Source: a virus. From it: a stretch of DNA of 64,000 bases. Within the stretch, counting starts at the first letter, position 1. Each line of letters opens with the position of its first letter. The translations under genes were made by a program, and so were the position numbers. Below the pieces are notes generated by a model. That model had not been told where the DNA came from. It saw only the letters and a program-made list of their open reading frames with translations, and made no database searches. The stretch spans positions 1 through 64,000 of IMG/VR virus record IMGVR_UViG_3300035698_011202. The stretch is one strand, 5' to 3'. Of this stretch, positions 34,135-50,114 are shown piece by piece.

Positions 34135-36372
34135 TTAGTATCGTGTGATAATTTTATCAGGCGAATAACTATTGCCAAAGCCAATCAAGTCTTGCGCCCC
34201 AAAAAAGTCCTCACTTTCGCCGGACATTAGCATGTTGCTATGACGTATACCAGATAGCCCCACGGTTAAGTTGACGAAGGGTTCTTTGCCTTCTACGTAA
34301 CGATAATACTCAATAGACCCAAACATATAACCTAACGCATGAAAGAAGTGGTCGTTACCATTTAATTTAACCCAGACCGGAATCTTCTCGTCGTTTTCTT
34401 CTCGTACCATGTCTACTAAATGCTCTATAATCATGGTCTTGAATTTACCAAACCCATCGAGGAATAAGTTTCGCTTCTTAATACCAAAAAACACGGAATC
34501 TAGGACGTGGGTTCTGTTTATCTGAACGTAATCTAACTTGTCTAAGCCATCCGTGACCAAAGCAATAGGCTTGTTGACCGTGTAATGAGCAGGAGCAATT
34601 TTTCCATCACTGGCTTCGCGTATAGCATTAGCCGTGGGTGTGTAAGGGTAACGGTCCATCAGGCCACTGATGATGTTGTATTTAGCTCTCATGCTGTCTA
34701 CAAAAGACTGGATAGCCGATGAGGGGCACGTCATAAATTCAACTACGCGAATTTTTTCAGTCCCTTCCATACGCGCTACAACAATGTGACACGTTTTACC
34801 CACGTCTATACCTATGAAGTGGGGTAGGGTGTTATCGACAGGCGGGCATCCAGCGTAGCCAAACATCGCATCGACATCGCTGTCCGACATTTTCTGGTCT
34901 TCATTGGTGTAAGGCTCACCAAGCACCGTGTTGTGGAAGCCTTTTAAATTATCCTTTTCCAAGTACTTGAACATCTGAGTAAAACAATAAACAGGGTCCA
35001 GACGGTGTGTTGAGAAAGTCCTGACACGATAGCCTCGGTTTAAAGTCCTACTTGGATACTTAGCCACCCACTCACGATTATCATGGTCAGCAAGATTAAG
35101 AGGTTTGTGGCATTTCTCGCAATAAACTTTCGCAGTCTCAAGTTTAACTTGTCCACTATCAACAAGCTTAGATGAAAGGTGAATAAAACTATCACAATCA
35201 TCAGGCATACCATCGACACGAACAAAATCGCGGTTAAATAAAGGAACTTGGTGATGATTGCAAGCAGCACATTTAAGAATATATTCATGTTGGTCACTTC
35301 TAGCATAGCCTTTGTCAACACCAAACCCTTCATAGGTAGGTGTACTAAACCGCTGGCTGACTCGGTGGTCTGAACCCTGCAATCGAGAGTTGAACAAAGA
35401 CAGCATATCGGGGGGTGTTAAATCAATTTCATCGTTAAATACAAAGTCAGCATTGATAGATGTCGCATCTGCCTCGCTTGAGCCGGTGACATACAAGTAC
35501 GACGTACCAATTCTCATCAAATCCATGGATTGTTGCGTCTTATCTTGGGCATCTTGCCTGAATGCTTTGTCGTATTTCAGCAAGGGCTGGATACGCGCCT
35601 TAGAAATACGCTTAAACATTCGCTCGTTGGGCATGGTGTAGATTAATGACGTATTGGGTGTACGAATTAGCAGCGTTATTGCTTTGCGAATTTGTATCTC
35701 AGTGTTGTGCGTCGGTATCATTCCTCGACCACACAAAAACAAGTGAGAAGGTGAGTCTACTGATATACATCGAACAGGTACGGGGTCACAGGCTTTGATA
35801 GATTGTATGTAGTGGTGTCCAATCCCGTTCGCGGTGGGTATTCGTATCGTTCGACCCGTTACTAAATGGGCTAATCGATGAGTTGGATGCACGTTGACTT
35901 CTCTGTGCAGCTTAATTCCGAGAAAGTTGACGTAAGTTTCTACTTTCCAGCGATGACCAGCATCAGCGATTATTTTTTCCCCTCCTTTGAATTTTATTTC
36001 AAAGCAGTCATGGTCTTGATAAATGGGTGATACGTAAGTGACGTTGCAGTGCCGTAGATTTTCGTCAAAGACCACATCCCCCACATCAAGAGCGCCCATA
36101 TTACTAAACCCCCCGAGTACACGAACAGGCGTATCTAGCGCCAAAGCAAGACCAACCTGCGATGGCTTGATTACATCCATGTTTGGGTGCATATCGTCGG
36201 CTATCTGTTTTTGGAACGGGTATCGGTCAAAAGAGAAGGGGCGTTTGTTAAGGCTAGTGTTGGCACACATCCAATCGCCATGGCTCATATCAGCCGAATC
36301 TTTGTTATAGCGACCATTAGCTTTAGACACGAAGCTTTGAACAAAGCTGTTCTTTTTCATTCTCATCGCCAT
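34135..36372 (-). CDS. terL: Terminase large subunit (GpA-like) containing a mini-intein
   Basis: YPFQ adenine-binding motif, KPSQVGL|TE Walker A split by the intein, FNDEID Walker B, STPT, Zn fingers, GIDVG nuclease; start may be ATG at 36366. Confidence 0.92.
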   Translation of the reverse strand: MAMRMKKNSFVQSFVSKANGRYNKDSADMSHGDWMCANTSLNKRPFSFDRYPFQKQIADDMHPNMDVIKPSQVGLALALDTPVRVLGGFSNMGALDVGDVVFDENLRHCNVTYVSPIYQDHDCFEIKFKGGEKIIADAGHRWKVETYVNFLGIKLHREVNVHPTHRLAHLVTGRTIRIPTANGIGHHYIQSIKACDPVPVRCISVDSPSHLFLCGRGMIPTHNTEIQIRKAITLLIRTPNTSLIYTMPNERMFKRISKARIQPLLKYDKAFRQDAQDKTQQSMDLMRIGTSYLYVTGSSEADATSINADFVFNDEIDLTPPDMLSLFNSRLQGSDHRVSQRFSTPTYEGFGVDKGYARSDQHEYILKCAACNHHQVPLFNRDFVRVDGMPDDCDSFIHLSSKLVDSGQVKLETAKVYCEKCHKPLNLADHDNREWVAKYPSRTLNRGYRVRTFSTHRLDPVYCFTQMFKYLEKDNLKGFHNTVLGEPYTNEDQKMSDSDVDAMFGYAGCPPVDNTLPHFIGIDVGKTCHIVVARMEGTEKIRVVEFMTCPSSAIQSFVDSMRAKYNIISGLMDRYPYTPTANAIREASDGKIAPAHYTVNKPIALVTDGLDKLDYVQINRTHVLDSVFFGIKKRNLFLDGFGKFKTMIIEHLVDMVREENDEKIPVWVKLNGNDHFFHALGYMFGSIEYYRYVEGKEPFVNLTVGLSGIRHSNMLMSGESEDFFGAQDLIGFGNSYSPDKIITRY
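35704..36147 (-). mobile_element. Class 3 (Ala1) mini-intein, 148 aa, no homing endonuclease
   Basis: ALALDTPV N-terminus, ADAGHRW block B, VRCISV block F, IPTHN|T block G. Confidence 0.9.
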
Positions 36373-36434
36373 AGTTTAATTTTATGCGTGATAAGGTATC
36401 ATTTGTAGCGAAACATACAATATGGCAGATGACG

Positions 36435-36917
36435 ATGAGCAAGCACTACCCCGAAATGGATGCTCTTAGTATCCAACGATTTATCATTATAAAAAATATG
36501 ATGGATAACGACCCCCTGTACCTCGATGATGACCATTGCCCCTATGATTATGAGGTTGTTCAAAAGCTAAGACAGCTCCTAGATACCCCTAAAGCGCCGG
36601 TTTCATTTGTGGCCGAAGTCGAAGACCTAAATGAGCTTGATGAAATCGATTTTGAAGTGGAAACCAAGAAGCTGTTCCGCGATATAAAGCTGTTTAAAGC
36701 CACACTTAGTAATGATGACTCATCCGAGCAAGTGCAAACCTTTAGAACCATGGTGACACTTATCGAAAAAATGATTGAGTCACAAGAACGAGCATCGGGC
36801 ATCAAACAATTTACAGCCTTCACCTCAATGATTATGGACTCCATGGATAGGTATCTTACCCCTGTTCAAAAAACCGAGTTCCTAGAAACCCTCGAACTTA
36901 CATTGGATAGACAATAA
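36435..36917 (+). CDS. Helical hypothetical protein, candidate terminase small subunit
   Basis: Divergent neighbour of terL; coiled coil; start context ATGACGATGAG. Confidence 0.4.
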   Translation: MSKHYPEMDALSIQRFIIIKNMMDNDPLYLDDDHCPYDYEVVQKLRQLLDTPKAPVSFVAEVEDLNELDEIDFEVETKKLFRDIKLFKATLSNDDSSEQVQTFRTMVTLIEKMIESQERASGIKQFTAFTSMIMDSMDRYLTPVQKTEFLETLELTLDRQ

Positions 36918-36919
36918 TT

Positions 36920-39319
36920 ATGTTTGAATCCCTGTCCCGACAAGCAATTGAACTAGGTTTACCTCTAATCCCTGTTTTTCAGGCCAGTGGTTTACCTTGC
37001 GTCACCGATAAAATTCTACCACGGGCTTTTGACCCTTTAATTCAAGCTAGTATGCGTACCGAGCACCCAACTAAAAACGCCTGTATCTCGTTAGACACAT
37101 TAGGTGACAATGGTTGCCGCTTATATGTGGTCGAAGTGTTCGATTCTCGCATTAACCGACTGCTACAGCCGACTGCAGCATTAGGCCATAAGTTAATTTA
37201 CAAAACTATGGACCCCACAGGCAGAAAAGACTTCGATGTTTATAACCTTGAAGGCGATGTTGTGGTGTCTGTTCAGTTGCGAGGGTACGTCACGGTACTG
37301 AGTGCCACGGATTTACCGAGCAAACACGCAGAAATTATAGTCGTAGACCTGCAACAGTTAAGAGAAATACTGGCTGAGGTAGGTGAAATACGCACTCAAA
37401 ATGACCCTTATACCCGTCTACCCAGCACTTTTGCTCAATTAGACTACCAACTAAAGAGCAAAAACGGGCTGTTTGTGGCTAATTTACTGCTAAAAAGCAA
37501 CGAAAACACCCGAGTTCTTCCGATTTTGCATGAAATTGACGCGGTTTATGCCCAAATGACCGTAAAACTGCTAAAAGACGCTCGATTGGCCCATTCTCCG
37601 GTGGGTTTGTATATACAACACTTTCTTAGTTTATTATCAGAGCAGATTCACGAAAATAAATTGAAGTTACACCCTGACGCGCTGCGAGGTATAGGTGCTC
37701 AGTACAGCGAAAAATACTTTGTGTCGTTGTCAAAAGACGACATTCAAATGGATTACGAGGACTTTAAAACGTTCGCACTGCGCCTAATGTCAGCCGCAAT
37801 AGGCAGTGAGCAAAAGATGTTGGTTGCTTGCCAAGATATTTTTGATGAAATGGCTTTATCAACCGCGCTTAGCAAAATACAGCTGGACCAGTTCAAGCGA
37901 TTCGTGTCACGGCAGTCTGCGATGAAACTCAACATGAATAAAATTGAATCTCAAATACTTGAAACCCGCAAAGAACGCTTTGGCCTTGGGTCGTTTAGCA
38001 ACACACTTGGAAAAGCTATATCCACCCTAAACCTAATGGGTGACTTTCGCTACGACGGAATTATATCCAGTGAACTGCTTCGCTGGTCGGGTGCGTTCTG
38101 GGAAATTTACCCTGATGTTGAACTTCGACAATTCATTAACTACTATTTTGCGTCAAAAGAAATACAGCGTTCAATATCCAAACTCAATGAAATGTGTGAG
38201 TCCATCAAGCGCCAGTTCGCCTCCTACTTGCCCCCTACATCGGGCGTTAACTTTTTAAACTGCTACTTGGATGAGAATTTGAATACCTTTAGCCATGACC
38301 GCCGACAAGGGTTTACGTATGCCTTCGATTTTGAGTACAACCCTGAATTACCAGACCCTGCATTATTCTTAGACTTCCTAAACGATTGCTTTTGTGAGCA
38401 AACGCCTGCAGACCGCGATCGGAATATTAATCTGGTTAAGCAAACCATCGCTGCCACCTTGTTTCAAAAAGGCCCATCACTACAAAAAGCAGTGTTACTT
38501 TATGGCGCAGCCTCGACAGGTAAAAGCCAGCTACTTGAAATAGTAAAGCGGTTAGTGCCCTCGCACAAAACCTGTGCCATCTCTCCTGAGAAGTGGAACG
38601 AGGCGGTCCAAGCTAAAGGACTAAACGACAAGCTCTTGAATGTGTGTGGTGAGCTAAGTGAAACGAAATCGATAGATGCCCAGCGGTTCAAAGACATAGT
38701 AGATGGCAACCCGATTACTCACTCCACCTTGAGTACAAGCTTTACCGTAACGCCACATTGTACTCACTGGTTCGCATCCAACCACTTACCTAAATCCAAA
38801 GACCCCACAGAGGGCTTTAGCCGCAGATGGTTGATTATACAATTCGACAACGTAGTTAAGCCACACCTACGCGTACTAGATTTAGGCTCAAAGATAGCCT
38901 CAGCTGAAAAAGAGCAAATTGTAAATTGGGCTAGTAAAGCAATCACCCAATTAAACGAGCAGCGCAGTTTTGACCTAGCGCCTAATGACTTAGAAGGAGG
39001 TATCGCTCGTATGAATAACAACGTTAGGTATTTTATAGAAACAGCGTGTACCACTCACAATCTGTCTTGGCTAAAAAGCCTCGAAAAAGATGAATTGACC
39101 CAAGAACTGACAGCCTTAAAACCCACATCACTAAAATATATTTATACAAAGTACAGCGTGTTCGTGAAAGATATGAATTGTGGCGCGGGAGTAGACGAGC
39201 AGGAATTTATTATGAGAATGAGGCATCTTGCGGCAATGTTCGGCTTCATCTCTGTGGTAGGAGCAGCAGCAAATCGACGTATAATCGTACAGTATTATGG
39301 GGTGGTTATATGCGCTTAA
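36920..39319 (+). CDS. P4/D5-family SF3 helicase with degenerate prim-pol-like N-terminus
   Basis: LYGAASTGKS Walker A, KLLNVCGEL, WFASNHLP, GFSRRW; D5_N-like region. Confidence 0.85.
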   Translation: MFESLSRQAIELGLPLIPVFQASGLPCVTDKILPRAFDPLIQASMRTEHPTKNACISLDTLGDNGCRLYVVEVFDSRINRLLQPTAALGHKLIYKTMDPTGRKDFDVYNLEGDVVVSVQLRGYVTVLSATDLPSKHAEIIVVDLQQLREILAEVGEIRTQNDPYTRLPSTFAQLDYQLKSKNGLFVANLLLKSNENTRVLPILHEIDAVYAQMTVKLLKDARLAHSPVGLYIQHFLSLLSEQIHENKLKLHPDALRGIGAQYSEKYFVSLSKDDIQMDYEDFKTFALRLMSAAIGSEQKMLVACQDIFDEMALSTALSKIQLDQFKRFVSRQSAMKLNMNKIESQILETRKERFGLGSFSNTLGKAISTLNLMGDFRYDGIISSELLRWSGAFWEIYPDVELRQFINYYFASKEIQRSISKLNEMCESIKRQFASYLPPTSGVNFLNCYLDENLNTFSHDRRQGFTYAFDFEYNPELPDPALFLDFLNDCFCEQTPADRDRNINLVKQTIAATLFQKGPSLQKAVLLYGAASTGKSQLLEIVKRLVPSHKTCAISPEKWNEAVQAKGLNDKLLNVCGELSETKSIDAQRFKDIVDGNPITHSTLSTSFTVTPHCTHWFASNHLPKSKDPTEGFSRRWLIIQFDNVVKPHLRVLDLGSKIASAEKEQIVNWASKAITQLNEQRSFDLAPNDLEGGIARMNNNVRYFIETACTTHNLSWLKSLEKDELTQELTALKPTSLKYIYTKYSVFVKDMNCGAGVDEQEFIMRMRHLAAMFGFISVVGAAANRRIIVQYYGVVICA

Positions 39320-39420
39320 AAATAGTTATAGCGTTTTATACTTTAGTATAATGGACGTTAGTTTAATGGGGACTGTTTTTTATATTGACAGATTTTAAAA
39401 ATAGGCAGAAACTCCCGCCC

Positions 39421-39521
39421 GACGGTGAGTTCAGAACATAGTAAAAAAAAGACGATGAGTTCAGAACGCAGTAAAAAAATGACGATGAGTTCAAAACGCA
39501 GTAAAAAAATGACGATGAGTT
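39421..39521 (+). repeat. 30-bp tandem repeat (3 full units plus a partial) carrying GACGATGAGT
   Basis: GAC(G)RTGAGTTCARAACRYAGTAAAAAAAW units seen directly. Confidence 0.95.
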
Positions 39522-39584
39522 AAATCAGGCAACATACCCTTTAAAGCTTATTCTATTCGTGGCATTCGCGTGGGCGTGAACATC

Positions 39585-39619
39585 AAGCCCTCACTTCTTT
39601 GAAGTGGGGGTTTTCTTTT
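39585..39619 (+). terminator. Intrinsic terminator
   Basis: AAGCCCTCACTTC-TTT-GAAGTGGGGGTTTT then CTTTT. Confidence 0.75.
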
Positions 39620-39953
39620 GCCCGAGTTTCGCCATGACACATAGACCGGCCCTTTCAAATTCCCTTTCAAATTATTAAATATTCATAGCTTTTCGCTTTT
39701 CGCTTTTGGCTCTAGCTTTTCGGTTTGAGGTATGAACTTCTACCTCCGTAAAATCCTAATTTTTTTCAGCTGGAGTGAGGGCACAACCAGACTAAGGTGT
39801 TGTTTCTGTTGACCTTTTTAGCCGATACCCTTAATATATGTGGGTCGGATAAGGAGTCTGGCAGGGGGTGCAAATGTACCCGTTCAAGGCACAAATGTAC
39901 CTTGTTACTTTTAATTAACTCAGGTGGGGACTCCCCACCAAAAGGCAAAAAAA

Positions 39954-40832
39954 ATGACCACATCAAACGTAGTAAATTCAGTAAACGTAGTAAATCCAGT
40001 AAAAGCTAACTTCGAATTTTTACTAAAAAAGGACAAAGAAATTCTGTTCAATAAAGTTGGTTTTGCCGTGACCCTAGTATGTAATGGGTTGGTTGATATA
40101 GGTCAAATTATTGACCATATCGATGCAAGAAATGACGCGAATGGTATCGCTCAAATTGATTCTCAATGTGATGGATTTAGTCAGATTAAAGGTTTTGTGA
40201 AAGACTTCACAAAAAAGCTAGTTGAGTTGGAATTTTTACCAAAAAGTCACTTGAATATTGGCGAATGTAAACCCGCTCAGTTCACTGCTTATGGTAAATT
40301 CTTGCTTGCTGGCGGCACAAAAGACGCGTTTATTAAAAAGTTATCGGCTATGAATGGCGATTACGAACGCGCTGCTAAGTGGAATACTTTGTTAAATTCG
40401 TTCCCAACGCTAGCCGGTTTTGAAGGCGCTGAAGGTCAACCGCCAGTGCTACCTGCTGAAGTCTTAGCATTAGCCGAAAACTTAGAGCGCGACCATGCCG
40501 ATGCGCTGAATATCAACGCGATTTTAATCGCTAACGATAATGCTAAGTTTGATGCCGCATTGGCCATTGTGAATGCTCGGACCAACGCCATAGAAGCTGC
40601 TAAGCAGTCGCTAATTGATGCCGAAGCTTTACCGCTAACAGGTGGGGACTCCCCACTAGAAGCGCCAACCGAAGTGCTAACAGGTGAGCGATTGACCGAA
40701 GTGCTAGAAGCCGTGAACAATAAAGTCTTAACTAATATTGAGCTGTTAATGAATGATTACATCGATGCTAGTTTTGATGCGGTTCAAAAGGCAAAAGTTA
40801 GAAAAATGATGATTGCATTTGCCCAATCGTAA
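39954..40832 (+). CDS. Early hypothetical protein (about 292 aa)
   Basis: Long ORF after hairpin and AAGG RBS; followed by a terminator. Confidence 0.7.
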   Translation: MTTSNVVNSVNVVNPVKANFEFLLKKDKEILFNKVGFAVTLVCNGLVDIGQIIDHIDARNDANGIAQIDSQCDGFSQIKGFVKDFTKKLVELEFLPKSHLNIGECKPAQFTAYGKFLLAGGTKDAFIKKLSAMNGDYERAAKWNTLLNSFPTLAGFEGAEGQPPVLPAEVLALAENLERDHADALNINAILIANDNAKFDAALAIVNARTNAIEAAKQSLIDAEALPLTGGDSPLEAPTEVLTGERLTEVLEAVNNKVLTNIELLMNDYIDASFDAVQKAKVRKMMIAFAQS

Positions 40833-40848
40833 AAACAAATAACCATCC

Positions 40849-40875
40849 AGAACCCGCTGACAAGCGGGTTTTGTT
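40849..40875 (+). terminator. Intrinsic terminator
   Basis: AACCCGCT-GACA-AGCGGGTT followed by TTGTT. Confidence 0.75.
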
Positions 40876-41084
40876 CTCGCGTGACGCATGACGCATGACG
40901 CGTGACTCCCCTTGTACCATTTACTGCCCACCGCTAGGCGCTCACAGTGAGCGCCTTGCTGTGAGCTGTGTATTTTGCTGGGAATAGTAAAACGCGAGAC
41001 AAAAAAACTGGGGCATTTTTGGCCCTATATATCGCGGGAAATTTAATTAACTAACGGTGGGGACTCCCCACTAGGAATATAAAA

Positions 41085-41576
41085 ATGTCTACTTTACAAG
41101 CTAAGCAAATCCTTAAACTAAAAAGCCTTGTAGCTAAGGGTACAGCGTTGTACCAGTTGCACAAAAGCACAACGTTCTTGAAAGGGAGCTACGACAATGA
41201 AGATGGGATATGCGTCGTTGTCCTGCCTATGAAGTGCGATAACGACAACAACTATTATGACATGATAGGTGAAAAGCTCACCTGTGATATGGACTTTCCC
41301 GAAGATGGAATAGCCGTTTCCATGTCTGGCGACGCTAAAGAGCATTATGAATATGTCACTAGCGAGTGGGTTATCTACCCCCTCATAGCCGAGTTAGGGC
41401 TTGTAAAAAGAGTAGATGAAGATGGGAGGCTACACATCGATATACCCAAACTAGACGCGATACCAAGGTTTATGACCGGTGAATTAAACCTTCAAAATTT
41501 TAAGGGTAAGACCGTAGCATTTTGTCAGGCCAGTGGCTTGAGCATTTTGGAAACAGACCTAGCGTTAACCGCTTAA
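41085..41576 (+). CDS. Hypothetical protein
   Basis: AGGA RBS after palindrome. Confidence 0.7.
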   Translation: MSTLQAKQILKLKSLVAKGTALYQLHKSTTFLKGSYDNEDGICVVVLPMKCDNDNNYYDMIGEKLTCDMDFPEDGIAVSMSGDAKEHYEYVTSEWVIYPLIAELGLVKRVDEDGRLHIDIPKLDAIPRFMTGELNLQNFKGKTVAFCQASGLSILETDLALTA

Positions 41577-41624
41577 TTTAATTAACTAACAGTGCGGACT
41601 CCGCACTAACAATTGGAATTGACG

Positions 41625-41807
41625 ATGGAAACAATAGTATTAGTAATACTTGTACTAATCACCTTTTGGCTTGCCCTAATGGTCATTAAAATTACCCTTA
41701 ACGCTGCTTTATCGTACAAAAAACGGGTCACAATTCGCAGAAAGATGTTCATAGCGCGAAAAAAAGCGCGTGAAAAATATTTTAAGCACCTGTTTTTGCG
41801 CGATTAA
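41625..41807 (+). CDS. Small membrane protein
   Basis: N-terminal TM helix, basic tail; starts at TTGACGATG. Confidence 0.65.
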   Translation: METIVLVILVLITFWLALMVIKITLNAALSYKKRVTIRRKMFIARKKAREKYFKHLFLRD

Positions 41808-41939
41808 GGTGGACGGGGGGGATAAAAACGCAGTGCAATTTCACCCCCAAAGTCAACGCGCACTGCTCACCGCTAACATGAATAAGCTCACCGCTAACAT
41901 TCACTTTTTACTTAAATCTTCACAAAAGGGTCTACCACA

Positions 41940-42185
41940 ATGTCCATATTTTCAATAATCGCCAACACGTTTAGCGTCAACAAAACGATGTTATCTGCCT
42001 CAGAAATGCAATTACTGGCATCTATAAATGCGTCTGCCCGTACATTAAAAGCGCAATTAGAGGCCAAAAAATTGGGCGCTCAGCGTGCAAAAGTCCAAGT
42101 AAAAGACTGCTACCGTAGCAATAAAACCCTGTTACGGACTCCTATTAGTACAAAAATTGCACGAAAAGCCCCTATTAATCTATAG
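41940..42185 (+). CDS. Basic hypothetical protein
   Basis: ORF on the expected strand; weak RBS. Confidence 0.45.
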   Translation: MSIFSIIANTFSVNKTMLSASEMQLLASINASARTLKAQLEAKKLGAQRAKVQVKDCYRSNKTLLRTPISTKIARKAPINL

Positions 42186-42728
42186 CTTTGCGGGCTAGGG
42201 TAAATTAGTAGGTTAGTAGCCACTATCGCTTTATGCCGTCATATGTCGGGTCTTGAGAAGAATAAAGTGTACAGAATCAAAAATAGCAGACATTTTTCTT
42301 ATTAAAAACATTATGTATTAATTAGAAATATGAGTGTGATCTAAAAAAGAGCCATCAAAAAAAGAGCCTACAATTTAGTTCCTAAGCGTGACCGCACGAA
42401 AGTCCTCAGGCGACATCCGACAGCTAAGAGTCCAAACGCGCCAACGTCATTGCTGGGCGATTTGACTTTTGCTCCTGTATCGCTCGGTGTTGATATATAA
42501 TTTTATAGATATACCAATGCTTAGGTTGATGCTCGAACGTGTCACCTTGCTATGTTTGCTTTCGTATTTCGGGTATTGTGTCTGCTTAGTTTGCCCGTAG
42601 GGTATGAAGGTATTAAAAAGCTTGCAATATATTATTCTTTGATCGAATAATACTCACAGTAAATCGGGGATTAAGACCTGATTACTATTTTATAGATGGG
42701 GACTCCCCACTAACAATTGGAATTGACG

Positions 42729-43259
42729 ATGACAAACACGACATTTGTATGCTCTCAACGAGCGACGCAGAAAGAGATTTCTGAGATTCGCCTTCAAGTA
42801 TTCACATTGGGTAATCGCCTAAATAATTATCGCATAAATAATGCGGTGCGAGTTCGTGCTGCGTTGGGCGATTTGTTGCTTGCCTCCATACGCCGTGAGG
42901 CTGAGCTGACGGCGTTATTATCCTTCCTTAATACGACGTGTCGTATTCTCAATAAAAAGCCCATAACACCTCACTGTGAGGTTATTACAAGCGATTTAGA
43001 CGATGCGGTGGGTAACATCATTGGATTTAAGAACGATGGCAAGGGTTTCGCCATCATTCCTACATTTAGGGAGTTGGGCGCGGTGTTTGTTCCGACTCAA
43101 TATAAAGTGACGTTGTTGCGTAACACTGATTTCGAAAAGCTTTACATTGTAATGCTAAACGACGAGCTAAAGGCTGACTTTCTAGGCCGCCAGCAGCTTG
43201 TTCAAGAGCATAACGCCCTAGTATTGAGGCATACCCACCTTATGTGCCTCTTAGCTTAA
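42729..43259 (+). CDS. Hypothetical protein
   Basis: Starts at TTGACGATG after palindrome. Confidence 0.7.
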   Translation: MTNTTFVCSQRATQKEISEIRLQVFTLGNRLNNYRINNAVRVRAALGDLLLASIRREAELTALLSFLNTTCRILNKKPITPHCEVITSDLDDAVGNIIGFKNDGKGFAIIPTFRELGAVFVPTQYKVTLLRNTDFEKLYIVMLNDELKADFLGRQQLVQEHNALVLRHTHLMCLLA

Positions 43260-43427
43260 CAGCGAGCGAGTGGGGAGTCCCCACTCAAAACTTAAATTAA
43301 CTTGAAAATTGGAAATTGACGATGAAAAATACTTCGGTATCAAATCTAACCTGTCCTCAGGTGTTCAACTAATGGCGGTCGCTACGTTCGACACTCAGCG
43401 AGAATTAGCTTCTTGGGTGAATAGTTT

Positions 43428-43796
43428 ATGACTGTTCTGATAGGTGAAATGCTGACCCGTGAGCAGTGTTGGCTTGAATATCATGCAAACCGTGATTTTG
43501 AGGCAAGTTACGATGCTTTTGAAATGGGTTATCACTCTGTGCTGGGTCAAAACACCTGTTCGTGGGCTATTCACATTGATGAAATGTCACGCGGTCTTTG
43601 TGATATTTCACGGGAAGAAGCCTTCGACTTAATGGAGGCGCATGAGTGTGAAATCCAGCGAGAATATGACCGTTATGCCCCGCCTGAAGAAACTGAAGAA
43701 GAAGCTCAGGCTTACTTCGAGTTTCACCATCTAAAGCCTGTGACAGCTCCATACTGGCAAGTGTGTGTGGCTAAAATAGACGCGGCTTTAGCTTAG
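43428..43796 (+). CDS. Acidic hypothetical protein, 5' end possibly frameshifted
   Basis: ORF; the upstream motif start at 43322 is in another frame. Confidence 0.5.
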   Translation: MTVLIGEMLTREQCWLEYHANRDFEASYDAFEMGYHSVLGQNTCSWAIHIDEMSRGLCDISREEAFDLMEAHECEIQREYDRYAPPEETEEEAQAYFEFHHLKPVTAPYWQVCVAKIDAALA

Positions 43797-43815
43797 AATC
43801 GGTGGGGACTCCCCA

Positions 43816-43990
43816 CCAATAAAACGGTGTGACACCTGTAAAATTGATGACCAATAAAACGGTGTGACACCTGTAAAATTGACGATGAGAAAACAGTGTG
43901 ACACCTAATAGTGTGACACCTATCAAATTGACGATGTGAACAAACAGCAAGGTTTTTGCCTTGCACTCCAATTAAATTGACGAAGAGATA
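43816..43990 (+). repeat. Composite repeat region: 35-bp duplication, four GTGTGACAC palindromes, several AAATTGACGATG copies
   Basis: Seen directly. Confidence 0.9.
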
Positions 43991-43993
43991 ATT

Positions 43994-45697
43994 ATGACTG
44001 TTATTGCTATGAGTAAAATCGAAGTACAAGCCCACTTTGCAGATAAAATGGACAATTGCCATCCTTTGGTTGCCGATGCGATTAACAATTGCGTTGGCGG
44101 GTTGCAAATCCGATCCGTGTTCAAGCCTGAATTAAACAGAGAGGCGTTACAATCCAAAGTACAGGTAGCTTTGAGAAAGTTGGCTGCCCACCCTATAGGT
44201 GAGCGTAAAAAGGGTCGTATCTTGGGTGAGGGCAGCAGCATGGATTTTAGATTACACCTAAGTATTCATCAAGATACCCCTTATATGGTGAGTAATATCA
44301 ACGAGATTTGGGTCAACTATATGGTCACGGGTGACATGCCTGCTGAGCGGTCTGTGGGCAGTAAGTTAATGCACAAGGGTCGTGTGCCCATTTCTAAAGT
44401 AGTGTCTGATTTCAGTGATGGCTTGTGCGGTATATTTCGCAACCAAGACCAAACGGTCAAGGACTTTATTGCTGAGATTAACCAGTTGGTAAGTTCCAAT
44501 ATATTTGTGATGACTAAAAGTAAGCTCAAGCATCACTATCAAACGTTTGCAAAAACTAAAAATACGACCTCTTGCATGTCAAAGCCTGACGAACAATATG
44601 AGATGGGTGGTGGTCACCCTATCGATTGTTATGAACAAAGCCCAAATATGGCATTAGGTCTAATGATTAGGCCCGATGCGACTTTTTCTGAGGACCATTA
44701 TAGTTTTGCGGGTCGCATGTTTTTCTTGCATAACCTTGAGGGCAAGTTTGTCGGACGTTCCTCGTTTTACGGCAACGAATCTCAAAAAAGGTTCATCATT
44801 GACCAACTCAATGACAGTGGTATCGACAACACGCTTTACGGCGGTTTGCTGAACGTTATCACTAACCACGATAACGAGTTGATGGTGCCATATATCGATG
44901 TATGCCATCAGCCCCATCGTGACCCTCAATCAAATAGATTGCATTGGCTAGCTGACTTGACTGAATTGCAGGACAATAATTGTATGCACTTAATCGACCA
45001 GCAAATGTGGTTGGAAAAAGGTAAAAAGTACCTTTTTATTGGTGAGCCTGAGTATTGTGGTAATGAGCAGTATTTTCATGGAGAGGCCAGTGACCAAGGC
45101 CGCAAAGTATGCCGTTTAGTGGACGTAGACGACGCGCAGCGGTCATGGACTGATTTATCAAAGGGTGTGGTCCTGATATATGTACCAAGCCGTGACGAGT
45201 CGTATCCAGAGGACGAAGTGGTTTATTCCGACTATTCAGACAGCTATATACACGAGGACGATGTAGTTCACTTAGTAACAGGCGAGATAATGCACGAAGA
45301 TGACGAAGGTAACGAGTATGTCCAATGCGATGACAGCGGCGATAACATTCGCATAGATAGGGCAATTCGCTCTGATTACCACGACCGGTGGTATCGAAAG
45401 GATTTGCATGGCGATATTCTTAGTTATTGCTCAGAAGAAGATGACTATTACTTAGACCACGAAGAAGATAACTTTATGGAGTATCACGGCTACGTTCAGG
45501 TTGTTGATATTTACGGTGATAAGGAATGGTCTAAAAACGCGGTGTTTTCTGAGTTTAGAGGTGCCCATCTTGACGGCGATAGCGCCATTTCCACACCCAC
45601 CAATGATTATATCTATTCAGAAGATGTAATCGAGTGGTTAGAGGCCAATGATTCGTACGAGTACGAGTTTGGTGAATTTACAGAAAAAGCAGCATAG
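43994..45697 (+). CDS. Phage protein with SCM motif and acidic C-terminal repeats
   Basis: TSCMSK...HP...SPN...GR...FYGNE...PYID; C-terminal repeats such as VYSDYSDSYIHEDDVV. Confidence 0.75.
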   Translation: MTVIAMSKIEVQAHFADKMDNCHPLVADAINNCVGGLQIRSVFKPELNREALQSKVQVALRKLAAHPIGERKKGRILGEGSSMDFRLHLSIHQDTPYMVSNINEIWVNYMVTGDMPAERSVGSKLMHKGRVPISKVVSDFSDGLCGIFRNQDQTVKDFIAEINQLVSSNIFVMTKSKLKHHYQTFAKTKNTTSCMSKPDEQYEMGGGHPIDCYEQSPNMALGLMIRPDATFSEDHYSFAGRMFFLHNLEGKFVGRSSFYGNESQKRFIIDQLNDSGIDNTLYGGLLNVITNHDNELMVPYIDVCHQPHRDPQSNRLHWLADLTELQDNNCMHLIDQQMWLEKGKKYLFIGEPEYCGNEQYFHGEASDQGRKVCRLVDVDDAQRSWTDLSKGVVLIYVPSRDESYPEDEVVYSDYSDSYIHEDDVVHLVTGEIMHEDDEGNEYVQCDDSGDNIRIDRAIRSDYHDRWYRKDLHGDILSYCSEEDDYYLDHEEDNFMEYHGYVQVVDIYGDKEWSKNAVFSEFRGAHLDGDSAISTPTNDYIYSEDVIEWLEANDSYEYEFGEFTEKAA

Positions 45698-45708
45698 GAA
45701 AATTGACG

Positions 45709-47211
45709 ATGAGTTATACAAGTAAGACCTTTAACCAATTACAGGCTTCAGTTTTGAAGTCTATGGATGATTTAAATCTAGCACCTATAGAAATACTTTC
45801 GTTGACGAAGAACGCAGCTATGAATGCTGCCCAGCGTTACGCAGAAAAGTATTTGGAGGTATCGCTACGTCAAGGCGATCCTTCTCAGATGAAGCGGCTC
45901 CGAGCGTTTATGGATTCAGCTGGAAACTGTTGTTATGACTTCAATATAGTGGGGAGTCCCCACTCAGAAGAGGATGGTGAGTATCGGTTCACTTATAGCG
46001 TTGATTTTGACCGTCAGGACGGCCTGTACCTGCAAAAACGCTCAAAGCGAGGTGTCAGCCTTGGTCGAGTACTTGGTGACTTTGACGACGGCCTGATGCT
46101 CAATCTTCAATTCGATGGCGATACGTATATTCGCAGCTATCACGAGGTAGAAGCATTAAAAACTGAGGGTATGCCCCAAAGCGAGTTGATCAAGTACTTT
46201 GTCAACAAATTCAAAGCACAATCAAAAAATGCTTTTGTGTATTTCACAGACGTTAACATCGACCAACATTACAAATCTTTGTCTCAAGTGCGTGACTTAG
46301 ATACCTGTTTGAGTCGTAAAAACTCACACTACCATCGCAAGGTCAATGGCACCTATTACCACCCATTGCGAACATTAAACAAGTCGCCAAATGTCCGATT
46401 GGCTTTACTATCCAACACTCATCACAGCGAGTGGGAGGACGGCCAGTACCCCTTTGTGGGTCGTTGTTTAGTCAAGATGGACGAGCTAGGTAAGGTCACG
46501 GGTCTATCTCGTTACTATGGTCACGAAAAGTTCAGTCGTGATTCGCTAAGTCAAGCGTTTAACACTAGAGAAGGAGTGCAAGGCGGGGTATTTAAGGCGG
46601 TATATGATGACGAAAACGAATTGATTTTGTTTTTTGCTGACCAACTAACCTCAGATTCTGAAGAGAAAAATGCGGTTTCGTGGATAGATAATCCTAGTCC
46701 TAGATGGTTCGATATTCATGTAGGCCGCGAGTTTTCGTCCCTCAAGAATCGCAAAGATTTACTGGTAATGGGTAATACCAATCGCAGTTTTGGGGTCACG
46801 CCCAGCTTCGATGGCAGGGAAGTGACTACTTGTAGCAATGCTAAGTATGTGCGTAACGACAGACCTAAGCCCGATAAGTATAGCGACTACGTTTATAGCC
46901 TTGAGTATGGCGTAATCAGGGCCAGTAACTACGATTTGACGTTCAATATTGCGCTAAACGACTTTGTAGTAGACGGCGACATACTACACCGCTCAAATAC
47001 GGGGGATGGCATTACGCATTATCACGTAGAGAAAAACTTGTACGTACAAACTATCTTTCACGATTGGGTGTTACGTGACGAAGTGATACTTTTCTTTGTC
47101 GCATATAGCAGTTGCTATGTCCCGATAGATAATGACCTTGGCATCATATACGGTCAAGAAATGGGCACACGAGAACTTGAAGAATTAATAGCTGACACGA
47201 TTGCAGCATAG
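45709..47211 (+). CDS. Paralog of the upstream SCM-motif protein
   Basis: DTCLSR...HP...SPN...GR...YYGHE...FFAD aligns with upstream ORF; starts at TTGACGATG. Confidence 0.75.
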   Translation: MSYTSKTFNQLQASVLKSMDDLNLAPIEILSLTKNAAMNAAQRYAEKYLEVSLRQGDPSQMKRLRAFMDSAGNCCYDFNIVGSPHSEEDGEYRFTYSVDFDRQDGLYLQKRSKRGVSLGRVLGDFDDGLMLNLQFDGDTYIRSYHEVEALKTEGMPQSELIKYFVNKFKAQSKNAFVYFTDVNIDQHYKSLSQVRDLDTCLSRKNSHYHRKVNGTYYHPLRTLNKSPNVRLALLSNTHHSEWEDGQYPFVGRCLVKMDELGKVTGLSRYYGHEKFSRDSLSQAFNTREGVQGGVFKAVYDDENELILFFADQLTSDSEEKNAVSWIDNPSPRWFDIHVGREFSSLKNRKDLLVMGNTNRSFGVTPSFDGREVTTCSNAKYVRNDRPKPDKYSDYVYSLEYGVIRASNYDLTFNIALNDFVVDGDILHRSNTGDGITHYHVEKNLYVQTIFHDWVLRDEVILFFVAYSSCYVPIDNDLGIIYGQEMGTRELEELIADTIAA

Positions 47212-47222
47212 GAAAATTGACG

Positions 47223-48602
47223 ATGACATTTAAAACAGAATTAAAATTGATTGCTAACGAATCCAAGGTATTTCACAACACGGACGCTTTTTTACCCAGT
47301 GTGATATTGCCACAGATATGCCGCCATATCCGAGGCCATAACAGTGTTGGCGAAAAGAATTTCCTTAAAAACTGGCTTGAGCCAGCGTTCAAGAAGCTTG
47401 GCCTTGAGTTCACCAACGATGCCTTTGGTAACTATTACGTGCAAATAAAAGGCCCGCAAATGGAGCGAGTGCTGCACGTAGGCCACTTAGATACGGTCAG
47501 TAGTGCCAGTAATCTCAAGAAATACCAGAAAGTAATTATCGACAAAGATAACTTTATGACGCTAGACCATGCTCACTATGCAAGTCTCAAAGGGGCTGAT
47601 GCTTCTATGGGTGTGCTTGGCGCTGATGACGGCTCGGCTATCGCTGTAATGTTGTATTTGATGGCTAACGGAGTATCGGGCTGTTTTTTACTAACCAAAG
47701 CAGAAGAAATTGGATGCCTTGGTGCAAACTACATCGTAAAAAATCACCCTGAGTTCTTAGAAAAGTTCGATATTGCGCTAGAAGTTGACCGAGCAGACAC
47801 CTTCGAGCTTATCGCTGAGCAAAGTACAGGTAAGTGCGCCAGCCGTGGATTTACAAAAACACTAGCGGATGCAATCGGCATGAAGCACGAGCATTCGGAT
47901 GGAGGAATTATTACTGACCTTGGGAATTTTAATAACCTAATCAAAGAGGGAATTAACATAGCCGCTGGCTATTTATTTCAGCATTCCAGTGATGAGATTC
48001 AAGACATGCTTTACATTGAGATATTAGCTAAGCAGATGGCTAAGCTAGATTATGGCTCGTTGGTTGTATCCCGAAAAGTCACTGATTTAGGTGACACAGG
48101 TTGGGGTAACTATGGGGGTTATGGTGGTGGTTACAGTCGCTCCAAAAGCAGCTCAGGATTACACAAAAACTCTGGGTACAGGTACGACGATTATGAAGAT
48201 TACGATTACGATGGTTTTTTCTCTTCTAAACAGAAAAGCAAGACTGAGGATGTTAAAGGTATTTGCCCTGCGTTGCTGCAAAAAGACCCTGCGTTAGAAA
48301 CAGGGTTGAGCATAGATGACTTGACTTATGACGAGAAAACCGACCTGTACCAGAACCTTTCAGATTCTGATTGGTATTTTATGCTCAACGCTGATGCGAG
48401 GCGCGAGCTGATGCGTTTCGAATATCCAATTATAACGGGTGTTACGTGTGACAAATTACCCTATGCCGAACTCGTTGACTTTATTGCGTCAGACCCAGAG
48501 GCATTTGCTAACTATTTCATAGACCAAAAGCTCGACCTAGCGGTAGTTGGCGCGGATGATTATTTGCAAGATATTAACGATATATACGAAGGAAAATTAT
48601 AA
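47223..48602 (+). CDS. Zn-dependent peptidase, M28/M20-like
   Basis: HLDTV, LGADD, EEIG, EVDR, GY..QHS..E metal ligands; starts at TTGACGATG. Confidence 0.85.
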   Translation: MTFKTELKLIANESKVFHNTDAFLPSVILPQICRHIRGHNSVGEKNFLKNWLEPAFKKLGLEFTNDAFGNYYVQIKGPQMERVLHVGHLDTVSSASNLKKYQKVIIDKDNFMTLDHAHYASLKGADASMGVLGADDGSAIAVMLYLMANGVSGCFLLTKAEEIGCLGANYIVKNHPEFLEKFDIALEVDRADTFELIAEQSTGKCASRGFTKTLADAIGMKHEHSDGGIITDLGNFNNLIKEGINIAAGYLFQHSSDEIQDMLYIEILAKQMAKLDYGSLVVSRKVTDLGDTGWGNYGGYGGGYSRSKSSSGLHKNSGYRYDDYEDYDYDGFFSSKQKSKTEDVKGICPALLQKDPALETGLSIDDLTYDEKTDLYQNLSDSDWYFMLNADARRELMRFEYPIITGVTCDKLPYAELVDFIASDPEAFANYFIDQKLDLAVVGADDYLQDINDIYEGKL

Positions 48603-48850
48603 TGAGTAAATGTTCTAAGAAAGAAGGATGTAATTTGTTTTTCAACGGCGTGTGTCAGGCGCTTTGTGGTCAGCCACAAGACATTTTTGTGGCTGAGTTT
48701 AATAGAGCCAAAAAAACGGTGGCAGCGCCAGTGACGGGTGCTGGATTGTCAAGTACCGCGAACTGGTACAAGCCCAAGCCAGCCGTGGTCTATAAGCCGC
48801 GCCATGTCACTGCCAGTATCCGTACAAGACGCGACTATTTACCTGTATAA
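48602..48850 (+). CDS. Small Cys-rich hypothetical protein
   Basis: Coupled ORF with four N-terminal Cys. Confidence 0.55.
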   Translation: MSKCSKKEGCNLFFNGVCQALCGQPQDIFVAEFNRAKKTVAAPVTGAGLSSTANWYKPKPAVVYKPRHVTASIRTRRDYLPV

Positions 48851-48897
48851 TTAACTAACTGAGTGGGGAGTCCCCACTCAAAAACTAGGAATTGACG

Positions 48898-49149
48898 ATG
48901 AAACTAAATCACACCACTCCTGCTGTTGGTAGAAAATCCACGCGTGAAAATAAAGGTAGCACTCAGCTTTTTTTAGTGTTGTTTACTAATTTTAATGGGA
49001 TGAAAACCCAAGAAATTGTCAAAGCTTTTAGTTTTGACGAGCTACATTCTTGGATTGAGAAGTTCAAAGCGGATTATGGCCCCCGTATGACTCATAGTAT
49101 CCAACATATTAACAAAGCGCGTATAGCTGACAAAATAAATATTGCTTAA
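48898..49149 (+). CDS. Hypothetical protein
   Basis: Starts at TTGACGATG after palindrome. Confidence 0.65.
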   Translation: MKLNHTTPAVGRKSTRENKGSTQLFLVLFTNFNGMKTQEIVKAFSFDELHSWIEKFKADYGPRMTHSIQHINKARIADKINIA

Positions 49150-49180
49150 ATTAACACCACTCAAAAACTAGGAATTGACG

Positions 49181-49684
49181 ATGACATTAGCAGAACAAAT
49201 ATTAGATAGACTTTTCTCTTTAGACGAGCAGCAAAAGCAAATCCTCGAATTAATTAAGAACTTACCAGCGTCTAGGGACGCTGCATTTGAAGCTGAATTA
49301 CAAGCGATAGTCGAGCCTACGGTTTTACCGCTTATTGAGTTACCTGTGACGTTGCATGAAGCACCTGTGGCTCTTAAAAACTCCCGGCTACTTTTGAGCG
49401 ACATGACTAAAGGCACTAACGCCGCACTTGGCTTGCGATTGCTAAAAAAACACCCTGAAGTATTGGGTAGGATTATAAGGTTGCGTAGAGAAGGCTACTT
49501 GAACGATGACGTCTTTGAGTTTCTTAGCTCTGATTTTATAAATATTCACAAGGAATATCATATTGGAGCCATTATCACAGCGGCAACTCAGGTCAGGTTC
49601 ATGGTAGGACAGACCAAAAACCTAAAAGCCACGGCTGCTTATAGGCGCTTCATCAAAGATTGTGAAGCGGGTATTAAAGTATGA
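49181..49684 (+). CDS. Hypothetical protein
   Basis: Starts at TTGACGATG. Confidence 0.65.
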   Translation: MTLAEQILDRLFSLDEQQKQILELIKNLPASRDAAFEAELQAIVEPTVLPLIELPVTLHEAPVALKNSRLLLSDMTKGTNAALGLRLLKKHPEVLGRIIRLRREGYLNDDVFEFLSSDFINIHKEYHIGAIITAATQVRFMVGQTKNLKATAAYRRFIKDCEAGIKV

Positions 49685-49857
49685 GGCCCAAGTACGCGTT
49701 CACAGAAGAAGAGAAGGTGCATATCTTCAAGCTGCGTCGTGAAGGAACTTTTGCAGATGTGGTTGCCGCGTATCCTAAAAAAAGCCTAGTGAGTATTAAG
49801 CGGTTGATTATGCGAATGGGCTTGTCTTCCACCGATTCACCAAGGACATATTCATGA
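49681..49857 (+). CDS. 58-aa putative helical DNA-binding protein (not in ORF track)
   Basis: MRPKYAFTEEEKVHIFKLRREG...; ATGA overlaps at both ends. Confidence 0.6.
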   Translation: MRPKYAFTEEEKVHIFKLRREGTFADVVAAYPKKSLVSIKRLIMRMGLSSTDSPRTYS

Positions 49858-50114
49858 ATTATTTTACAGCTTGGTTTCGCCGTAAGAAGGGTACGGACAT
49901 GAATTTGCCTATAAATTTCCATCAAAAGTGGAAGGCGCGTATGCCTGATGTGGCTCAGATGATCCAGCAGGGTTTGTTGGTCAAGCACATTGCCAAACAT
50001 TACCAGTGTGCGCCTAGCACTGTTGTAGAGGCGGTAACTATGCACAGCATAGGTGTTAACCGGCTAAAGCAGAAGTTTAGAGCAGAGGGTACGTTATGCA
50101 AACAACTCTCGTAA
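49854..50114 (+). CDS. HTH-like protein
   Basis: GLLVKHIAKHYQCAPSTVVEAV. Confidence 0.6.
   Translation: MNYFTAWFRRKKGTDMNLPINFHQKWKARMPDVAQMIQQGLLVKHIAKHYQCAPSTVVEAVTMHSIGVNRLKQKFRAEGTLCKQLS

Follow-up and report, generated by a model that had tools for sequence, protein, structure and literature searches.

Why would a phage repeat, several times over and with no gene attached, the short sequence with which it opens its genes? The question is raised by a spacer of 197 nucleotides (nt; 43797-43993) in the genome of an uncultured phage of salt-lake origin. The window analyzed here is the first 64 kb (64,000 nt) of a 72,231-bp viral contig (IMG/VR record IMGVR_UViG_3300035698_011202, hereafter G000), classed as linear and estimated to be 89% complete; coordinates refer to this window unless another record is named. 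The spacer separates an open reading frame (ORF) of 122 amino acids (aa) from an operon at 43994-48850, and carries an array (43801-43993) of hairpins, small palindromes and copies of a motif that elsewhere stands directly before start codons. The answer preferred here, to which we assign a probability of roughly 0.4, is that the array is a young leader built by duplication, in which the messenger RNA (mRNA) would offer several places for a predicted small RNA (sRNA) to pair, whether to sequester that RNA like a sponge or to bring the operon under its control.

The array is real and lies far beyond chance expectation. Its elements are as follows:

43801-43817: hairpin GGTGGGGACTCCCCACC, with a 7-bp stem and a 3-nt loop and no T-run after it.
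43815-43849 and 43850-43884, plus strand: tandem duplication of two 35-bp units, identical at 34/35 positions.
43827-43837: palindrome 1, GTGTGACACCT.
43841-43850, plus strand: motif copy 1, AAATTGATGA, opening a mini-ORF of 6 codons at 43847-43867 (MTNKTV*).
43862-43872: palindrome 2, GTGTGACACCT.
43876-43892, plus strand: motif copy 2, AAATTGACGATGAGAAA, opening a mini-ORF of 7 codons at 43885-43908 (MRKQCDT*).
43896-43906 and 43911-43921: palindromes 3 and 4, both GTGTGACACCT, a 15-bp sub-duplication.
43925-43939, plus strand: motif copy 3, with the start-stop ATGTGA (ATG-TGA) at 43934-43939.
43947-43964: hairpin 2, GCAAGGTTTTTGCCTTGC (GCAAGG-TTTTTG-CCTTGC), between motif copies 3 and 4.
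43974-43988, plus strand: motif copy 4, AAATTGACGAAGAGA, displaced, with 5 nt between its end and the ATG at 43994.

The hairpin, the 35-bp duplication, the four palindromes, the 7-codon ORF and the start-stop copy had all been reported in an initial annotation of this DNA, and all are found where it placed them. Two micro-ORFs had been counted, to which the one opened by motif copy 1 must be added, making three in all. Hairpin 2 at 43947-43964 was not on that initial list. The accompanying statement that none of the motif copies starts a real gene holds in that only mini-ORFs are opened, but copy 4 belongs to the 5' region of the operon's first gene, a 567-aa ORF, with the 10-nt core of the copy ending 10 nt before the ATG.

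The 9-mer GTGTGACAC begins at 43827, 43862, 43896 and 43911, and all 4 copies extend to the 11-mer GTGTGACACCT. Exact copies of the 9-mer occur nowhere else in the 72,231-bp genome and all 4 fall within 95 bp, where a first-order Markov model predicts 0.2 occurrences per strand for the 9-mer and 0.013 for the 11-mer. Allowing one mismatch yields 14 matches elsewhere in the window against 11.7 expected, which is chance level. The four motif copies (AAATTGAYGA) begin at 43841, 43876, 43925 and 43974. When the four units are aligned, each consists of a self-complementary element, 5-6 nt and then the motif, with the hairpin at 43947-43964 replacing the palindrome in unit 4. Ordinary gene junctions of the phage are built alike, GTGGGGACTCCCCAC being followed by about 10 nt and then AATTGACGATG, and the array may be viewed as a gene-less tandem run of this start-site module, that is, of a self-complementary element plus a start motif. 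All four array copies keep the AAATTGA part of the motif, which pairs with the predicted sRNA, and all four are without the GGA found at most real starts.

The array arose by tandem duplication, and the 35-bp duplication is no artefact of assembly. TRF reports a period of 35 with 2.7 copies and 89% matches, and contigs assembled from 4 public salt-lake DNA runs contain the duplication, with a 62-nt unitig bridging copy 1 to copy 2. One run (X2) gives the repeated 33-nt unitig a depth of 18.2 against about 8.1, and the bridging unitig a depth of 8.5 against the same 8.1. A different run (X1) has the bridging unitig (43815-43879) at a depth of 10.3, compared with 15.3-16.3 in the flanks, a weak hint of one-copy variants. 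Across the 4 public runs, 0 base changes or indels were seen in 43612-44964, and single-nucleotide polymorphisms appear in both flanks beyond.

The motif, with the consensus AAAATTTGGAATTGACGATGA, directly precedes the ATG in 31 ORFs that are 30 aa or longer, counted on both strands of the whole genome. Searching the window for AAATTGACGA with at most one mismatch gives 29 occurrences where 5.9 are expected. Nearly all copies lie immediately 5' of an ATG, those adjacent to genes are all co-oriented with the gene, and the motif is present on both arms of the genome (minus-strand examples at 1010, 15936, 24933 and 30998). By the author's count over 36.4-72 kb of G000, none of the plus-strand ORFs whose start overlaps the preceding stop codon carries it (0/16), as compared with 17/40 of the other plus-strand ORFs, a distribution to be expected if the word serves to initiate translation de novo. 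The motif works at the RNA level as a start signal used genome-wide, and a match to the predicted sRNA complementary to it is therefore the rule, no mark of a decoy. The GGA within it occupies the position of a weak Shine-Dalgarno core, and pairing with 16S rRNA presumably cannot account for the conserved TTGAC(G) beside it, given the standard anti-Shine-Dalgarno sequence. Reading TTGACG as the -35 element of a sigma-70 promoter was rejected, there being no room for a -10 element before the ATG, and what lies 17 nt downstream being unconserved and in coding DNA.

Relatives use variants of the motif. The nearest named one, the temperate Pseudoalteromonas phage KB12-38, shares its layout and has 48% polymerase identity; closer relatives, at 53-56% polymerase identity, are uncultured, and some are proviruses. 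The form in KB12-38 and G007 is GGATTGAC plus 2-8 nt plus ATG, that in G001 and G009 is GGAAATTGACGAT, and that in G006 and G008 is ATCGACGATG. It is not a trait of the whole family, as the more distant Achromobacter phage JWF uses an ordinary AAGGA. Within the window, a motif at 43313 is an orphan copy, opening only a 16-codon ORF (43322-43372), while the next gene, at 43428, has no motif. An AT-rich box, AATTTAATTAACTAAC, which holds stops in all three frames, is found beside hairpins (for example at 41040-41056, 41575-41590 and 48848-48860), and in KB12-38, G007 and G001 the motif comes after similar boxes, TTAATTAAACTAAAAC; such a box might serve to stop translation in every frame, or as a promoter specific to the phage.

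The closest known counterparts of the motif are the Start-Associated Sequences (SAS) and extended SAS of Cluster K mycobacteriophages, for which a role in translation has been proposed and the nature of the binder, RNA or protein, left open (PMC3203893). Both are conserved asymmetric words that stand a few bases before many start codons in a single orientation; both combine a Shine-Dalgarno-like core with conserved bases unable to pair with 16S rRNA; and both are often preceded by an inverted repeat, with rare copies that are oppositely oriented or not adjacent to genes (PMC3203893). Their sequences differ, however, the SAS consensus being GGGATAGGAGCCC, and SAS are confined to the non-structural half of the genome, whereas the present motif occurs on both arms; moreover, the sections of the Cluster K paper drawn upon here describe neither a complementary sRNA nor a tandem gene-less array (PMC3203893). 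The phage motif is an analogue of SAS as a conserved start word, and not a member of that class, since it shares neither the Cluster K consensus nor the restriction to one arm.

A start signal that opens mini-ORFs could act by loading ribosomes with no sRNA involved, the mini-ORFs drawing in ribosomes that would hold the structured leader open or shield the mRNA, and thereby adjust translation from 43994. Three of the array's ATGs follow the motif exactly as in real genes, and the main ATG at 43994 has no adjacent motif and only AAGAGA as a Shine-Dalgarno-like element. Motif-driven mini-ORFs are also found in other leaders, at 43322-43372 (16 codons) and, on the minus strand, near 2299 (9 codons). 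The array copies, however, are the ones without the GGA core of most real starts, 54 nt separate the end of the last mini-ORF from the main ATG, a long way for coupling, and the mini-ORF peptides are not conserved wherever they were compared. We consider such a leader improbable.

What would pair with the motif copies is a predicted RNA encoded far from the array, in the structural arm. The relevant loci, together with that of a candidate partner protein, are listed here:

18043-18118, minus strand: predicted anti-motif sRNA of about 76 nt, whose seed UUUCUCAUCGUCAAUUU pairs with the motif.
18151-18124, minus strand: sigma-70-like promoter TTGACG-16-TAATAT with a TG extension, from a promoter scan.
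18069-18049, minus strand: intrinsic terminator with an 8-bp stem and a T-run after it, from a terminator scan.
13808-13888 of KB12-38, minus strand: sRNA counterpart in the same tail-module gap.
69677-69756 of G001, plus strand: sRNA counterpart in the same tail-module gap.
60229-60311 of G007, minus strand: sRNA counterpart in the same tail-module gap.
16368-16447 of G009, minus strand: sRNA counterpart in the same tail-module gap.
67344-67835 of G000 (4344-4835 of L005), outside the window: ProQ/FinO-domain protein of 163 aa (Pfam E 3.9e-10).

The sRNA was called from the sole plus-strand motif copy (18076-18092) within the minus-strand tail module. Its predicted fold has a 5' hairpin, an open stretch of about 20 nt (UUUCUCAUCGUCAAUUUAGUAUCAA) and the terminator, with a z-score of -4.0. 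Five full genomes were compared (the window phage, KB12-38, G001, G007 and G009), and in all five (5/5) the tail module contains a single antisense copy of the motif, accompanied on the strand of the neighboring genes by a promoter-like site and by a hairpin followed by a T-run. The promoter and terminator were found by scanning in the window phage and in KB12-38, where the syntenic gap gives TTGACT-17-TACTAT and a terminator, and by eye in G001, G009 and G007, the G007 promoter being weak. Four of the RNAs were folded and look alike, each placing a single-stranded anti-motif between a 5' hairpin and a terminator; the consensus fold of all five sequences is weak (-3.8 kcal/mol) because their alignment is poor. 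The anti-motif also tracks the motif variant of its own phage, reading CAUCGUCAAUUU in the window, CAUAUUGUCAAUCC in KB12-38, AUCGUCAAUUUCC in G001 and CAUAUCGUCAAUCC in G007. A small plus-strand gene at 18076 was considered and set aside, as the peptides would be 12, 10 and 3 codons long in three phages and unrelated, and the promoter and terminator lie on the other strand. Rfam returns only sub-threshold matches at the locus (Trp_leader at 28.5 bits, 41 needed; PrrF at 25.7, 90 needed), which are read as terminator-like structure and no family membership.

The existence of an sRNA complementary to the motif, as the initial annotation had it, is credible: judged from sequence, the combination of promoter, terminator, fold, synteny and co-variation in 5 genomes looks like a genuine, conserved gene. 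That the RNA is produced we infer from this architecture. Proteins with a FinO domain typically bind antisense RNAs that carry a terminator and help them to pair at ribosome-binding sites, to go by the portions of the literature cited (PMC9977716). A homologue of the ProQ/FinO-domain protein is present in 5/5 of the relatives' records searched, the KB12-38 copy being annotated as such, and the protein is a candidate chaperone of the predicted sRNA.

How well the array would pair with this RNA can be judged against the ordinary start sites of the same genome. The predicted duplex energies are:

Array copy 1: -11.8 kcal/mol.
Array copy 2: -24.1 kcal/mol.
Array copy 3: -19.3 kcal/mol.
Array copy 4: -21.0 kcal/mol.
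31 gene-adjacent sites: median -18.3 kcal/mol, best -26.1 kcal/mol.

Shuffled seeds give a mean of only -7.9 kcal/mol against array copy 2. Copies 2, 3 and 4 equal or surpass the median of the gene-adjacent targets, as the sites of a sponge should, and copy 1 does not. The 17-nt perfect match between copy 2 (43876-43892) and the sRNA, pointed out at the outset, is real and is the longest in the genome, but it is not unique, as the start region of a 59-aa ORF at 52255 ties with it; among the gene-adjacent copies that match over 10 nt or more (n=23), the median is 12 nt.

Similar arrangements recur in the relatives, compared as four lineages (n=4: the window phage, KB12-38, G001/G009 and G007). 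In each of the 4, the longest sRNA match is an orphan or displaced copy located in a leader or noncoding stretch. In the window phage the 17-nt match is tied with a gene-adjacent copy. In KB12-38 it measures 16 nt, a displaced copy tying with the second copy of a tandem pair, and the ties include a gene-adjacent copy; the orphan first copy of the pair matches over 15 nt. In G001/G009 it measures 19 nt and falls in an apparently noncoding stretch, and in G007 it measures 18 nt and is the second of three tandem copies. In both KB12-38 (41498-41568) and G007 (6756-6880) a real start is preceded by tandem orphan copies and a hairpin after them, so that the order of elements in these leaders, orphan copy or copies, hairpin and real start, is that of the array. 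KB12-38 (58640-58840 of its record, L004) and G007 (23400-23640) further share a conserved leader with an orphan copy 5' of an orthologous gene (MNNIDNLI...), in which the orphan motif comes after two hairpins (CCCCTAAGC...GCTTAGGGG and GGGGTGT...ACACCC) that overlap and are mutually exclusive. The window ortholog of that gene lies at 57522-58349, and its leader (57417-57521) carries only a degenerate motif copy.

In the mechanism that these observations suggest, the four GTGTGACACCT words would pair with one another in the leader mRNA, 1 with 2 and 3 with 4, or else 2 with 3, which would leave the motif copies roughly as accessible as ordinary start sites are. The accessible copies would then bind the predicted anti-motif sRNA, probably with the aid of the ProQ/FinO-domain protein. 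Two outcomes may be envisaged: the leader would soak up the sRNA, as a sponge, or the sRNA would shut the mini-ORFs and the start at 43994, placing the operon under control in cis. Binding at the array and its consequences are, like the production of the sRNA, conclusions drawn at one remove. The original proposal, a second decoy or a multi-site leader gating the operon, survives in part: the genome-wide signal, the conserved predicted sRNA and the best (tied) match of copy 2 speak for it, but the motif is also the ordinary start sequence of 31 genes, which the initial annotation did not recognize.

Several points weigh against pairing with the sRNA as the function of the array. Copy 1 is a poor sRNA site at -11.8 kcal/mol. 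That an orphan heads the list of matches is a post hoc observation and involves ties in two lineages, and as a class the orphan and displaced copies have sRNA matches no longer than those of gene-adjacent copies by one-sided Mann-Whitney tests in the five genomes (p = 0.49, 0.03, 0.82, 0.37 and 0.79; 4/5 not significant). No syntenic counterpart of the array is available, since the operon was not found in the relatives' records searched. The invariance of 43612-44964 shows no special constraint on the array, as it includes the first ~970 nt of the 567-aa gene. Among the public runs listed as holding the array stretch, none is an RNA run. Units 1 and 2 are 97% identical, and the duplication is thus young and could be neutral. 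The opposite strand folds nearly as well as the leader RNA (z-scores of -4.3 and -5.7, respectively, the latter against shuffles), so the fold energy reflects palindromic DNA and is no sign of RNA function. Lastly, nothing like the four palindromes is seen in relatives, and they might be bound by a protein on the DNA.

The youth of the duplication also opens the way to an explanation with no function at all, in which slippage or unequal recombination between hairpin-plus-motif cassette junctions left a neutral scar whose mini-ORFs and sRNA matches were simply inherited. That units 1 and 2 differ at 1/35 bases and that palindromes 3 and 4 are a 15-bp sub-duplication would fit such a history, as would the resemblance of the units to ordinary cassette junctions (self-complementary element, 5-10 nt, motif), the restriction of the palindrome cluster to this phage, the accessory nature of the operon, and the depth of 10.3 against 15.3-16.3 over the bridge in run X1, with its weak hint of one-copy variants. 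A scar, however, would not lead one to expect that tandem or orphan copies recur in the leaders of three other lineages, one leader being conserved between KB12-38 and G007, nor that all four copies retain the sRNA-pairing AAATTGA while all lack GGA, nor that the array is unchanged in 4 runs. On balance a functionless scar seems somewhat doubtful.

What the palindromes do in RNA and in DNA bears on two further explanations. In the predicted fold of the leader, the palindromes pair 1:2 and 3:4. Ensemble probabilities of being unpaired are 0.11-0.12 for the palindromes and 0.43-0.62 for the motif copies, with a median of 0.55 for ordinary start sites, and these modeled figures are compatible with stems that hold the pairing sites in loops. 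A single palindrome, having 9 bp and a 1-nt centre, is unable to fold alone as RNA, which keeps alive a reading in terms of DNA: the GTGTGACACCT sites may bind a dimeric phage protein that controls a weak promoter in the spacer or blocks read-through. Four exact palindromic copies, more than the three that would make an operator array of the lambda OR/OL type, lie within 95 bp and none elsewhere, although each palindrome is only 9 bp long. By eye, GTGACA (43898-43903), 17 nt and TATCAA give 9/12 promoter matches with palindrome 4 in the spacer, and the phage encodes small helix-turn-helix proteins, one of 86 aa (49854-50114, a weak match) and one HTH_17 protein of 81 aa (71353-71598 of G000). 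Yet the sigma-70 promoter scan finds no plus-strand site in the array and TATCAA is missing the final T; the palindromes, at spacings of 35, 34 and 15 bp, do not keep helical phase; and the sites lie inside duplicated units, so that their number may merely mirror the duplication. The genes flanking the array have no match to a DNA-binding family in Pfam, PHROG or the Atlas, and no GTGTGACAC cluster was found in relatives. Operators on DNA thus appear quite unlikely. The same spacings dispose of an iteron origin, and attP, a packaging site and a replication origin are ruled out by position and spacing, the terminase region lying near 34-36 kb.

The second of these explanations is a classical attenuator or a Rho-loading site, both raised by the initial annotation, in which translation of the mini-ORFs would set palindrome pairing and so decide termination before the operon. 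The four identical self-complementary segments would indeed permit either 1:2 with 3:4 or 2:3, and mini-ORF 2 ends within palindrome 3. Against this, no array hairpin precedes a T-run and the terminator scan of 43801-43993 finds no plus-strand site; the peptides MTNKTV, MRKQCDT and M contain no regulatory codon run; and a search of 36000-50000 gives 0 matches to Rfam families at E up to 1, hence no leader family. Rho loading fares no better, the composition of the leader (A72 C38 G41 T46) being A-rich and not C-rich or G-poor. Termination control of either kind is very improbable. More generally, promoter scanning of 39000-49500 yields 18 sites as compared with 22.9 in shuffles, and with fewer sites than in shuffles the scan does not define transcription units.

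Returning to the array as a cluster of pairing sites for the sRNA, a more ambitious version can be framed in terms of immunity. A temperate clade may silence about 30 of its own genes post-transcriptionally by means of one ProQ/FinO-assisted sRNA, and early arrays (39421-39521 and 43841-43988, with single sites in relatives) would titrate that self-silencing RNA and so free translation. Co-variation of word and sRNA would set heteroimmunity, as in P1/P7 c4 but genome-wide. We regard this "anti-immunity" sponge as unlikely.

Known antisense systems share some of these parts. P1/P7 c4, like the predicted sRNA, is a structured phage antisense RNA that pairs around a ribosome-binding site; in c4-ant, as in the array, the target leader offers two or more complementary sites; and in both cases co-variation of RNA and target sets, or would set, specificity among related temperate phages (PMC12197685, in the parts bearing on c4). 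The differences are that c4 is processed from the operon of its target and has one target mRNA, whereas the sRNA here would be transcribed in the tail module from a promoter of its own to its own terminator, and could have about 30 targets. FinP/FinO-traJ and Inc/FopA-repZ likewise join a FinO-domain protein of a mobile element to a terminator-bearing antisense RNA that acts on a ribosome-binding site, but as described in the cited portions they are cis-encoded pairs with a single target, and binding of the sRNA by the phage ProQ-like protein is only predicted (PMC9977716). As with the array, extended complementarity to an sRNA seed at a place other than a regulated start is seen in the SroC-GcvB sponge (PMC4474525), in a spacer or noncoding RNA, and in the prophage anti-sRNAs AgvB and AsxR (PMC12197685), again going by excerpts. 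These known sponges were established by experiments showing titration or decay, whereas the array, known from sequence, consists of four tandem copies of the sRNA's ordinary targets. The chbBC spacer, which acts on ChiX, is a decoy of this sort embedded in an mRNA, with extended complementarity to the sRNA seed.

At the level of genome architecture, the T4-type phages possess promoter-early stem-loop (PeSL) cassettes, repeated stem-loop modules that flank small accessory genes and carry a sigma-70 promoter. PeSL cassettes and the junctions of the array both combine a repeated stem-loop with an expression signal and could mediate shuffling or duplication, but the repeated signal here abuts the ATG with no room for a -10 element, whereas that of PeSL is a sigma-70 promoter. 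All told, the array is close to known kinds, namely start-associated sequences and sRNA target clusters or sponges, and the surrounding system is the more surprising part. The combination of a shared start word, a co-varying sRNA and a FinO protein was not found described in literature searches or in the consulted portion of a review of phage sRNAs (PMC12197685), and it may have been published elsewhere.

Other repeats related to the array are scattered through the early region:

39926, 40644, 41059, 41594, 42698, 43272, 43804, 45951, 48865, 52856 and 59238: hairpins of the family GTGGGGA(C/G)TCCCCAC, about 11 copies, to which GGTGGGGACTCCCCACC belongs.
39421-39521, plus strand: the "first array," a 30-bp unit repeated 3.4 times with the motif-like AAAAAATGACGATGAG.
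39585-39613, plus strand: a terminator-like hairpin 3' of the first array.

With at most 2 mismatches the hairpin family gives 27 matches against 4.65 expected, nearly all intergenic and within 39.9-59.2 kb; the family members mostly separate small early genes, and none precedes a T-run. At 41594 the stem carries a compensatory swap of G-C to C-G, and the same double swap is seen at 43273 and 43281 in contigs of runs X2 and X3; processing, stability and recombination junctions are possibilities for the family's role. The first array and the hairpin at 39585-39613 are followed by 12-bp and 7-bp tandem repeats in a 604-nt noncoding gap after the primase gene (39320-39923), which is likely the origin region, a better candidate than the 43801-43993 array, possibly with a noncoding RNA. 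The 19-nt orphan site of G001 occupies the same post-primase position as the first array, the two primases being 35% identical.

The phage has a siphovirus layout, with structural genes on the minus strand to about 36.4 kb and early and replication genes on the plus strand beyond. Pfam/PHROG family searches identified the replication genes, which are given here with the neighbors of the array:

36920-39319, plus strand: D5-like primase.
43428-43796, plus strand: the upstream 122-aa ORF, whose stop lies 5 nt before the hairpin.
43994-48850, plus strand: the operon, with ORFs of 567 aa, 500 aa, 459 aa (M28-like peptidase) and 82 aa.
55628-57097, plus strand: SNF2 helicase.
58419-59228, plus strand: 5'-3' exonuclease.
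59273-62158, plus strand: family A DNA polymerase.

An excisionase-like gene lies at the right end of the contig, and comparison with KB12-38 leads one to expect an integrase beside it. The 122-aa ORF has no Pfam or PHROG family and no usable match in the ESM Atlas, and the antisense ORFs over the array (66, 104 and 89 aa) have no PHROG family. The operon is an accessory cassette. A set of 5.8 billion proteins contains only two homologues of the 567-aa gene product, at 98% and 56% identity; they too are 567 aa long, and both are consistent with the start at 43994. The gene was not found in IMG/VR, named phages, metagenome contigs, species genomes or the records of 5 relatives. The third gene of the operon (47223-48602) encodes an M28-like peptidase (PHROG 4191, E 4e-51) whose relatives are annotated "peptidase" in many Klebsiella, Vibrio and Pectobacterium phages; as an IMG/VR query it found no relatives.

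Near-identical DNA occurs in 11 listed salt-lake metagenome runs, in 5 of which at least half of the sampled words are present. A blastn search of 43000-46000 against phages gave no match, the array word as a DNA pattern gave 0 matches, as did the hairpin-plus-motif pattern in IMG/VR and metagenome contigs, and the 14-nt motif alone gave single chance matches only, among the 80 stretches listed.

Start-associated words in phages have gone unexplained since those of Cluster K were described, and here is a phage clade that pairs such a word with a predicted sRNA, a FinO protein and gene-less arrays. The same parts are carried by KB12-38, a cultured relative with a host, which makes the system testable. 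If the pairing is real, a single phage sRNA would constitute a genome-wide translational switch, and the arrays would be its built-in sponges or hypersensitive control sites.

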